Shown one piece after another: positions 3,523 through 4,321 of a DNA stretch of 6,025 nt. Source of the stretch: a virus (taxonomy: Duplodnaviria; Heunggongvirae; Uroviricota; Caudoviricetes); the IMG/VR virus record IMGVR_UViG_2681813226_000023, positions 1 to 6,025 of that record; one strand, 5' to 3'. The notes under the pieces are model-generated. The model did no database searches. It worked only from the letters and a program-made list of their open reading frames with translations, and was not told the origin of the DNA. Position numbers and translations under genes: made by a program. Each line of letters begins with the position of its first letter. Position 1 is the first letter of the stretch.

Positions 3523-3831
3523 ATGTGCATACATCAAAATCACTTAACAAACATGCCGACCGAAAACATGAATCAGGGGCGACAAATGACCAAAATGCGC
3601 AGAGACAGAACACAGCAAAAATATAAAGCGTTAGACATGACAGAGCTTTCCCTAAAGGTGGCAATCAAAGTTATAGACCGCCACACACGGGAAGGATACG
3701 CGAAGGAGAATCCCGAACTAATAAGCGCATTCATGACCACGGCGGCGGCAAACTTTGCCACGCTGACAGAGCGGGAGATTGCAGAAGCGGAACAGGTAAC
3801 AACCATCAACGTTAAAAGCACTGGAGAATAA
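3523..3831 (+). CDS. Hypothetical protein (102 aa; alternative start ATG 3586 gives 82 aa)
   Basis: ATG 3523 follows GAGGGGGG (3506..3513); ATG 3586 follows AGGGG (3575..3579). Stop TAA 3829..3831, followed by an intrinsic terminator. No recognisable motif. Confidence 0.5.
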   Translation: MCIHQNHLTNMPTENMNQGRQMTKMRRDRTQQKYKALDMTELSLKVAIKVIDRHTREGYAKENPELISAFMTTAAANFATLTEREIAEAEQVTTINVKSTGE

Positions 3832-3850
3832 CCGAAGGAGTGAGCACATA

Positions 3851-3873
3851 GCCGGAGCAATCCGGCTTTTTTT
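3851..3873 (+). terminator. Rho-independent terminator
   Basis: GCCGGA-GCAA-TCCGGC stem-loop (3851..3866) followed by T7 (3867..3873), 20 nt after the stop of the upstream gene. Confidence 0.7.
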
Positions 3874-3898
3874 CGATCTCTCATATCTTAAAAAATGG

Positions 3899-3927
3899 TT
3901 GATTAATGATAATCTATCGAAAATACT
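3899..3927 (+). promoter_or_regulatory. Candidate sigma70 promoter for the following small-gene pair
   Basis: TTGATT at 3899..3904, 17-bp AT-rich spacer, AATACT at 3922..3927; an alternative TGnTAAT-like element sits at 3907..3913. Hexamer choice is ambiguous. Confidence 0.3.
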
Positions 3928-3961
3928 GATTATGCGATGATAAGTATCAGGAGGAAACAAA

Positions 3962-4156
3962 GTGGAAGAGATAAAGCAAAGCGCTACCGTGATGATTGAT
4001 CACGAGATCCTAAACGAGCTTAAAAAACTTCAATTCGATGTTATTCGCCGGATGAATGAAGCTGGTATATACGGCAGAGCCGCCACGCCAACAATAGGTC
4101 ATCTTGCACGTGTGCTGTTACGCGAAAGACTGGGCATTGCAACAGGTGAGGCATAA
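3962..4156 (+). CDS. Small hypothetical protein (64 aa), possibly DNA-binding
   Basis: GTG start at 3962 with AGGAGG at 3948..3953 (8-nt spacing); stop TAA 4154..4156. Product ...SATVMIDHEILNELKKLQFDVIRRMNEAG... No confident family assignment. Confidence 0.5.
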   Translation: MEEIKQSATVMIDHEILNELKKLQFDVIRRMNEAGIYGRAATPTIGHLARVLLRERLGIATGEA

Positions 4157-4159
4157 CAA

Positions 4160-4321
4160 ATGGCTATCACAGAACGCGAGGCAAGCATCATTAAGGCCAT
4201 TGGCGAGGAAACAAGAGACACCATAGCGCCATTGATGGAAAAGATCGCAGAGCTTGAGACACGAATAAACAAGCTGAGTAATGAAGTTGAAGGCCTGATC
4301 TCGTTACTCGGTGAGCAATGA
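4160..4321 (+). CDS. Small hypothetical protein (53 aa), predicted helical/coiled-coil; absent from the supplied ORF track
   Basis: My own translation: ATG 4160 with AGGTGAGG at 4144..4151, 3 nt after the previous stop; product MAITEREASIIKAIGEETRDTIAPLMEKIAELETRINKLSNEVEGLISLLGEQ; stop TGA 4319..4321. Confidence 0.45.
   Translation: MAITEREASIIKAIGEETRDTIAPLMEKIAELETRINKLSNEVEGLISLLGEQ

Follow-up and report, generated by a model that had tools for sequence, protein, structure and literature searches.

A Predicted Ribbon-Helix-Helix Protein and a Zipper Protein Resembling a Phage Head Protein at the Module Junction of an Escherichia coli Satellite

Results

Three small genes at the junction of two modules

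The DNA analyzed here comprises positions 1 to 6,025 of the IMG/VR virus record IMGVR_UViG_2681813226_000023 (6,025 nucleotides, referred to as the window) and, judged by gene content and identity to an annotated island, is part of a classical phage-inducible chromosomal island (Gram-negative PICI) of Escherichia coli. Our subject is an 800-bp stretch (3523-4321), which on sequence grounds is the junction of the replication-side and the packaging-side modules of this satellite. It carries three small genes on the plus strand. Gene 1 (3586..3831, 81 aa, or 102 aa as the open reading frame (ORF) 3523-3831) belongs to phrog_1231 and is the last replication-side gene. Gene 2 (3962..4156, 64 aa) is the first gene of the late operon, its product being a predicted ribbon-helix-helix (RHH) protein, and gene 3 (4160..4321, 53 aa) combines helper-like residues 3-27 with a predicted leucine zipper at residues 29-50.

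All three are present in RefSeq as hypothetical proteins and their ORFs were confirmed, so that the three small genes proposed in an earlier note on this DNA, the 53-aa gene included, do exist; its placement of them in a satellite, with the origin on one side and the packaging genes on the other, agrees with the island layout. The length of 102 aa given there for gene 1 holds for the ORF, while the length of the protein is uncertain. A lack of conservation, named in the same note as grounds for abandoning the genes, is not what we found. The ratio of nonsynonymous to synonymous substitutions (dN/dS) was 0.08 in gene 2, ranged from 0.24-0.49 in gene 1, and came to 0.13-0.29 in gene 3 (0.13 versus the Hafnia homologue), i.e., purifying selection acts on all three, and this overall range of 0.08-0.49 indicates that all of them are coding. 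A description of genes 1-3, or of RHH proteins in PICI late operons, was not found in the literature.

In contrast, the grouping of the three genes into one cluster had to be given up: gene 1 travels with the origin (ori) and ssb, genes 2 and 3 with cos and the capsid homolog. DNA covering gene 1 was matched by megablast in ~1187 of 5426 complete E. coli genomes, and the majority of the megablast matches to the region span gene 1 alone. The DNA of genes 2 and 3 and of their promoter is present in 220 complete E. coli genomes, and the two genes are always found together, as every one of the 220 matches covers at least 80% of the query. Along with terS and the capsid homolog, they have also passed into an island whose integrase, attachment site, and replicase are different. 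Furthermore, the order terminator, promoter, RHH gene, gene 3 recurs in an island of Hafnia and in the islands L009 and L012. L011 kept the RHH gene and is missing gene 3, and in L033, whose contig is cut off upstream, gene 3, cos, and the capsid homolog are visible. As a side observation, synonymous divergence (dS) between the window (3962-4321) and island L004 (8378-8737) amounts to 0.59 for gene 2 and 0.03 for the neighboring gene 3, which points to a recombination breakpoint between the two co-occurring genes.

Terminator, late promoter, and ribosome-binding site

The early/replication operon is closed by an intrinsic terminator on the plus strand (3850..3873), which the scan resolved into 3850-3867 plus a run of seven T, with a 7-bp GC-rich stem and a 4-nt loop (fold energy -16.9 kcal/mol, z = -2.6). 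In the islands of Hafnia, L009, L011, and L012, too, an equivalent intrinsic terminator is situated ahead of the late promoter. The late promoter itself is predicted to be of the sigma-70 type (3899..3927, plus strand), with a -35 hexamer TTGATT at 3899-3904, a 17-nt spacer, and a -10 hexamer AATACT at 3922-3927. Since 8 of the 12 consensus positions match, it is considered weak; a simple consensus scan returned no promoter site. In an alignment of ~120 nt upstream of the gene 2 equivalents from six diverged islands (E. coli, Hafnia, and metagenomes), the hexamers stand in register. TTGATT aligns with TTGATC, TTTACA, and TTGTTG, and AATACT with AACACT and AACAAT, which leaves TT (-35 element) and A-A-x-A-x-T (-10 element) as the invariant columns, at key positions of both hexamers. 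An AGGAGG Shine-Dalgarno sequence (3949..3954, plus strand) is read directly from the sequence, 7 nt ahead of the GTG start codon of gene 2 (3962). All three signals that the earlier note had described, a clean intrinsic terminator behind gene 1, a promoter-like region, and a strong AGGAGG before gene 2, are thereby recovered, the first by scan and fold energy, the second as a weak predicted promoter aligned in six islands, and the third by direct inspection.

Operator-like repeats overlap the -35 and -10 elements in four of five lineages (Hafnia, L009, L011, and L012). A candidate operator in the window, ATGATAAKNTATC, was rejected, its frequency being no higher than chance. Late operons of Staphylococcus aureus pathogenicity islands (SaPIs) use LexA control; this mode was dismissed here, as a CTGT-N8-ACAG box was not seen on reading the promoter region.

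Gene 3 combines a predicted zipper with an N-terminus like that of a phage head protein

Homologues of gene 3, 53-57 aa in length, were found in five island lineages (E. coli, Hafnia, L009/L010, L012, and L033). Viral and metagenome scans returned nearly exclusively the same E. coli island, in addition to L033 as a new lineage. The conserved parts are the two ends, residues 1-9 (MAITERExS) and the last 12 residues (EVEGLISLLGE[Q/K]), flanking a variable middle part with a 4-residue indel. A clean a/d heptad pattern (I29, L32, I36, L39, V43, L46, and L50) and a profile search of the PDB, in which the GCN4 zipper aligned with the tail by its C-terminal end, characterize the predicted product as a hydrophilic leucine-zipper protein. 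Since synonymous sites are saturated in the comparison with Hafnia, it is as protein sequence that the tail is conserved. Its conservation as part of the adjacent cos element was ruled out, both by these differing synonymous positions between E. coli and Hafnia and by the phages, which have nothing in common upstream of the G-run of cos. Likewise, the database name “NusG” was discarded: it appears in source records only, gene 3 encodes 53 aa compared with the ~180 aa of NusG proteins with their NGN and KOW domains, and no NusG/KOW match was obtained in Pfam or NCBIfam.

The N-terminal end gives a more informative connection. Residues 3-27 match the extreme N-terminus of a portal-adjacent phage head protein, with 13/23 identities to the orthologue of Stx1a_PV728 and 30% identity over 50 residues to gene 00155 of Salmonella phage SP-016. 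BLASTP yielded E = 0.002 for the Stx1a phage orthologue and E = 6e-4 for that of SP-016, and an hhalign comparison of a small gene 3 alignment with a small alignment of the phage N-termini reached a probability of 92.6% (E = 4.5e-7). Weak PHROG matches of gene 3 include phrog_1289 and phrog_8767, both being families of this same phage protein. Gene 3 is not a full member of phrog_1289, with the N-terminal 25-47 residues alone matching, and the relation is therefore one of a shared module. Taken as sequence evidence, these matches show that gene 3, over its first ~25 residues, and the phrog_1289 protein, at its N-terminus, are homologous. Most likely, gene 3 acts on the helper as a factor of morphogenesis or interference, and the earlier suggestion of small effectors at this position gains a credible candidate. 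The tail motif EVEGLISLLGE was not encountered in six-frame translations of two candidate helper phages.

In Stx-converting and related cos/HNH phages, the gene of the phrog_1289 family comes immediately behind the portal gene, whose stop codon it overlaps and to which it is coupled in translation. The phage proteins measure 245-461 aa, the length varying through ~50-aa tandem repeats, and comprise an N-terminal coiled coil and, with a subthreshold score, a CBM5/12-like domain at the C-terminus. Their C-terminal part matches phrog_2271, an 859-position profile of which the first 451 positions match portal; this suggests that fusions to portal exist. Members were detected in 93 phage records, mostly Stx1a-, Stx2a-, and Stx2c-converting phages, and the Stx phages concerned occur in serotypes that carry the island. 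Neither a solved relative nor literature was found for the phage protein.

Gene 2 is predicted to encode an RHH protein

The monomer model of gene 2 shows the succession beta-strand, helix, helix that defines the RHH fold, and on this model the product is predicted to be an RHH DNA-binding protein. Sequence comparison was less productive: Pfam, NCBIfam, and PDB yielded no matching RHH model or sequence, and viral predicted structures nothing significant for the model. A word-indexed protein search returned relatives of at least 93% identity alone, and an exhaustive HMMER search recovered three true distant relatives. The small size and the predicted beta-alpha-alpha fold are shared with Arc, Mnt, CopG, ParD, NikR, and TraM/TraY. 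In comparison with known RHH proteins, gene 2 differs by an unusually long inter-helix loop (NEAGIYGRAATPT) and by the missing Pfam match. The protein ends ~6 residues past helix B and consequently has no toxin-binding tail.

Most RHH proteins bind their own promoter region and thereby set the level or timing of their operon. Gene 2 lies first behind its own promoter and its homologues possess a basic N-terminal arm, both as in RHH autoregulators, and from this comparison it probably regulates the late operon. The gap between genes 2 and 3 is 3 nt in the window, and the two genes overlap by 10-20 nt in Hafnia and L012, which speaks for their expression being coupled.

cos, TerS, and capsid homolog point to the likely helpers

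Four nucleotides past the gene 3 stop codon begins the cos core (4325..4392, ~70 bp), with the pattern G-run ... GGACACCGCCCCC ... TCTCA ... AGAAAA. Stx1a-converting phages and Salmonella phage FSL SP-016 have the same core between their HNH and terS genes, and since this is the cos position of HK97-like packaging modules, the element was assigned as cos. It is present in every island lineage with gene 3, and L011, which has a portal homolog in the gene 3 slot, has a diverged version. The small terminase subunit (TerS) of the island is 46% identical to that of the Stx1a phage. The capsid homolog (5102-6025) shares 24% identity with residues 291-625 of the 645-aa protease-scaffold-capsid fusion of the helper; it consists of the HK97-type shell domain only and starts where the mature capsid part of the fusion starts. 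These common cos, TerS, and capsid types make Stx-converting and SP-016-like cos/HNH phages likely helpers.

Several further observations were made in this region. AAAGTTAC repeats with a 12-bp periodicity are located upstream of terS (4404-4429) and inside terS (4606-4695), in the latter case encoding KVT peptide repeats. In islands with their own terS, they replace the phage motif GTTAACATGTTAAC, which islands without terS keep; from this distribution, the repeats are likely recognition sites of the island TerS. Between terS and the capsid gene lies a further ORF of 53 aa (4951-5112) matching positions 89-125 of phrog_641 (E = 3.5e-7), i.e., the C-terminal and presumably oligomerization region of TerS. 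It adjoins terS also in the Hafnia and L011 islands and may, to judge from the matched region, act as a TerS decoy or interference factor. Finally, the 90%-identity cluster of the capsid homolog also holds the 412-aa integrase of the island, which is a database artifact because the two proteins share no similarity.

Discussion

A late operon possibly directed at helper heads

Based on these data, we read the locus as the junction of a PICI at which a late promoter, an RHH regulator, and a helper mimic encoded by gene 3 come together, a reading whose chances we judge to be about even. The architecture of the late operon follows from the comparison of islands, and the binding events with their consequences are what we infer from it. 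Early transcription, AlpA-dependent according to the PICI literature, would proceed across replicase, origin, and gene 1 as far as 3873. The weak late promoter would drive gene 2, gene 3, cos, terS, the 53-aa TerS-like ORF, and the capsid homolog, with the RHH protein binding its own promoter region and setting level or timing of the operon. Gene 3, produced in a fixed ratio with gene 2, would dock by its copied N-terminus onto the site at the helper portal or head that normally takes the phage phrog_1289 protein, while its invariant C-terminal zipper would hold a second, conserved partner. As a net effect, helper heads would be adapted to the satellite or disabled for the phage. A more specific version, in which gene 3 is a new satellite piracy factor coupling heads of Stx phages to the capsid homolog or the packaging machinery, is put forward tentatively and seems rather unlikely to us.

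A number of observations weigh against this picture. The similarity between gene 3 and the phage protein is confined to 25 residues. In the Hafnia island, the same gene 3 is paired with an RHH-patterned protein of unrelated sequence, and this partner swap, together with the breakpoint between genes 2 and 3, makes a specific complex of the two products doubtful. The window itself has no significant repeat overlapping the promoter, so that the operator idea depends on the other islands. On the replication side, the low-confidence model of gene 1 found no structural match in the PDB.

If genes 2 and 3 were instead accessory factors of cos, the RHH protein would play an architectural role near cos, as TraM/TraY do at oriT, and the zipper would recruit or modulate the helper HNH protein or terminase, leading to preferential cutting and packaging of the island's cos. 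RHH-suited repeats do not flank cos, however, which is bordered upstream by the gene 3 coding sequence and downstream by TerS-type AAAGTTAC or GTTAAC motifs; gene 3 is missing from L011 despite its RHH gene and related cos, and in L009 a gene of 2.4 kb lies between gene 3 and cos. We regard this role as unlikely. Much the same applies to gene 3 as a trans-acting mini-scaffold of the CpmB kind that lets the scaffold-less capsid homolog and the helper capsid form small heads, an idea with some appeal: the capsid homolog accompanies gene 3 in every lineage, it has no coiled-coil scaffold part (aligning to 291-625 of the 645-aa fusion only), and gene 3 offers a coiled coil with an invariant C-terminal peptide. 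Yet gene 3 is absent from L011 although the capsid homolog is there, conservation of the gene 3 tail greatly exceeds that of the capsid homologs (~35-43% identical), the gene 3 N-terminus is like that of a portal-adjacent protein and not of a scaffold, and a matching C-terminal motif was not found in helper proteins. On these grounds, a scaffold function is likewise improbable.

Two other explanations have considerably less in their favor. Gene 3 could be a functionless, decaying remnant of the 5' end of a captured helper post-portal gene, as might be suggested by the portal homolog sitting exactly in the gene 3 slot of L011 and by a resemblance to the phage protein that is limited to the first 25 residues. 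Decay is hardly compatible with an intact ORF, a dN/dS of 0.13, and a tail invariant across genera despite synonymous saturation, nor with a length held at 53-57 aa in five lineages and the lack of frameshifts or stops in 220 genomes (among matches covering at least 80% of the query); we consider it very improbable. The toxin-antitoxin-like pair envisaged in the earlier note, with an RHH antitoxin and a small toxin, is the reading we believe in least and was dropped. No toxin, antitoxin, or defense family matched in Pfam, NCBIfam, or PADLOC. Moreover, gene 2 has no C-terminal toxin-binding extension, and gene 3 is a hydrophilic zipper without enzyme or membrane character whose N-terminus is common to a phage structural-module protein. 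L011 has its RHH gene alone, and Hafnia swaps in the unrelated RHH-patterned protein.

Relation to known satellite systems

With respect to the helper-mimic reading, the closest analogies come from SaPIs. CpmB copies the capsid-binding end of the helper's scaffold protein. CpmB, CpmA, PtiA/PtiM, and Ppi are likewise small proteins encoded between origin and terS in a separately controlled operon, and in Staphylococcus aureus these late-operon proteins act on helper morphogenesis or packaging. The genes described here have no sequence or fold relationship to them and belong to Gram-negative hosts and cos/HNH helpers. In contrast to CpmB, gene 3 would mimic a portal-adjacent protein instead of a scaffold, the shared end being the N-terminus. 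SaPIbov5 has a helper cos site, depends on HNH-type cos phages, and encodes an HK97-fold capsid homolog, Ccm (PMC5052747, PMC8569155). Our island resembles it by the helper-type cos and the Ccm-like capsid homolog and differs by adding its own TerS with its own repeat motifs plus the RHH and zipper pair; a counterpart of gene 2 or 3 is not described for SaPIbov5.

Among PICIs of the EcCICFT073 type, Rpp proteins (RppA/B/C), encoded after the origin, mimic the TerS DNA-binding domain and redirect the helper (PMC6739421). These are winged helix-turn-helix proteins of 144-153 aa targeting lambda-type TerS, whereas the present island has its own TerS. Genes 2 and 3 differ from them in fold and show no similarity, and an Rpp identity was rejected for all of genes 1-3 on account of the differing sizes and the predicted RHH fold (gene 2), helix hairpin (gene 1), and coiled coil (gene 3). 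As an element, the setting is of a known kind; both the RHH and the zipper protein represent uncharacterized families, and the mimicry by gene 3 is a new lead.

The three genes are now assigned to modules, a dedicated late promoter and an RHH regulator are predicted, and with the phrog_1289 protein next to the portal of Stx phages, gene 3 is given a concrete helper target. If this holds true, gene 3 would be a further case of piracy by mimicry beside CpmB, Ccm, and Rpp. On the more specific version, in which gene 3 couples heads of Stx phages to the satellite, Stx-converting phages would serve as helpers to a PICI family that is present in ~4% of the complete E. coli genomes, predominantly those of Shiga toxin-producing E. 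coli. Satellites on Stx-converting phages could reduce the output of toxin phages and move DNA among pathogenic E. coli.

Gene 1 and the replication side

Gene 1 is best described by its family and neighborhood. It matches positions 1-78 of the 83-position profile phrog_1231 (E = 1.8e-46), the match starting at residue 22 of the 102-aa ORF. Its start, 3586 or 3523, is ambiguous: PGAP places it at 3586 (coding sequence WP_000164427.1, 81 aa) and family-wide conservation begins downstream of this start, while the ATG at 3523 has the stronger ribosome-binding site (GAGGGGGG) and corresponds in position to the annotated start in EcCICFT073. In total 168 homologues with 61-100% identity were collected, Enterobacteriaceae throughout, including that of EcCICFT073 (73%). 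The gene was not found in 50,697 phage records, nor in the Hafnia and metagenomic islands. It is always located downstream of a rep gene and ori, with either a primase or a RepA-type helicase as replicase, and its stop codon overlaps the ssb start in islands L002 and L003 and in EcCICFT073. Structure modeling gave a helix hairpin of low confidence (pLDDT 59), and sequence searches against solved structures gave no meaningful match for gene 1 or gene 2. Gene 1 is predicted to encode an alpha-helical protein and closes the early/replication transcription unit, which runs rightward, and its linkage to ori and ssb suggests that it serves satellite replication. As the sole experimental hint, EcCICFT073 genes after ori were expressed singly and only rppA blocked lambda (PMC6739421); for gene 1, this is indirect, the place of its homologue among the clones not being stated.

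Identity and layout of the island

The queried stretch (3236-4450) is 100% identical to an island of ~8.5 kb in E. coli O157:H7 SS TX 313-1 (L001), inserted between cspD/yljB and clpS. The annotation of L001 contains the genes of a PICI: int, primase, and terS genes, a capsid homolog, and a helix-turn-helix regulator that occupies the AlpA slot. The island starts with the integrase, followed in order by this regulator, by a YlcI/YnfO gene that is divergent, and by a gene similar to icd. The middle consists of small ORFs and a DUF4222 gene, then of the primase, which is of the D5_N type (1487-3235), and the iteron origin, leading to genes 1-3, and the right part comprises terS, the 53-aa ORF, and the 307-aa HK97-fold capsid homolog. 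This gene order corresponds to the layout of classical Gram-negative PICIs (PMC6092414). The replication origin (3243-3479) holds ~ten iterons (GGTAGAGG/CCTCTACC) in both orientations around an AT-rich center.

The DUF4222 protein (99 aa, window 1191-1490) is a member of the RgdR family, RgdR being encoded by a PICI and regulating motility and type III secretion (PMC3378721). The window protein has A10 and C20-G-D, as in the ED1a variant not activating secretion. A related island with gene 1 and ssb (L003, NZ_AP026092.1) resides inside the large-terminase gene of a prophage and represents a helper-embedded PICI of the kind described in PMC10111431. In two metagenomic islands, other genes adjoin the late module: in L009 (6407-8803) that of a 798-aa protein, tape-measure-like on reading and without a family match, and in L012 (4038-4622) a lambda tail-assembly-I-like gene. 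From these varied neighbors, the late module appears to acquire several kinds of helper genes.
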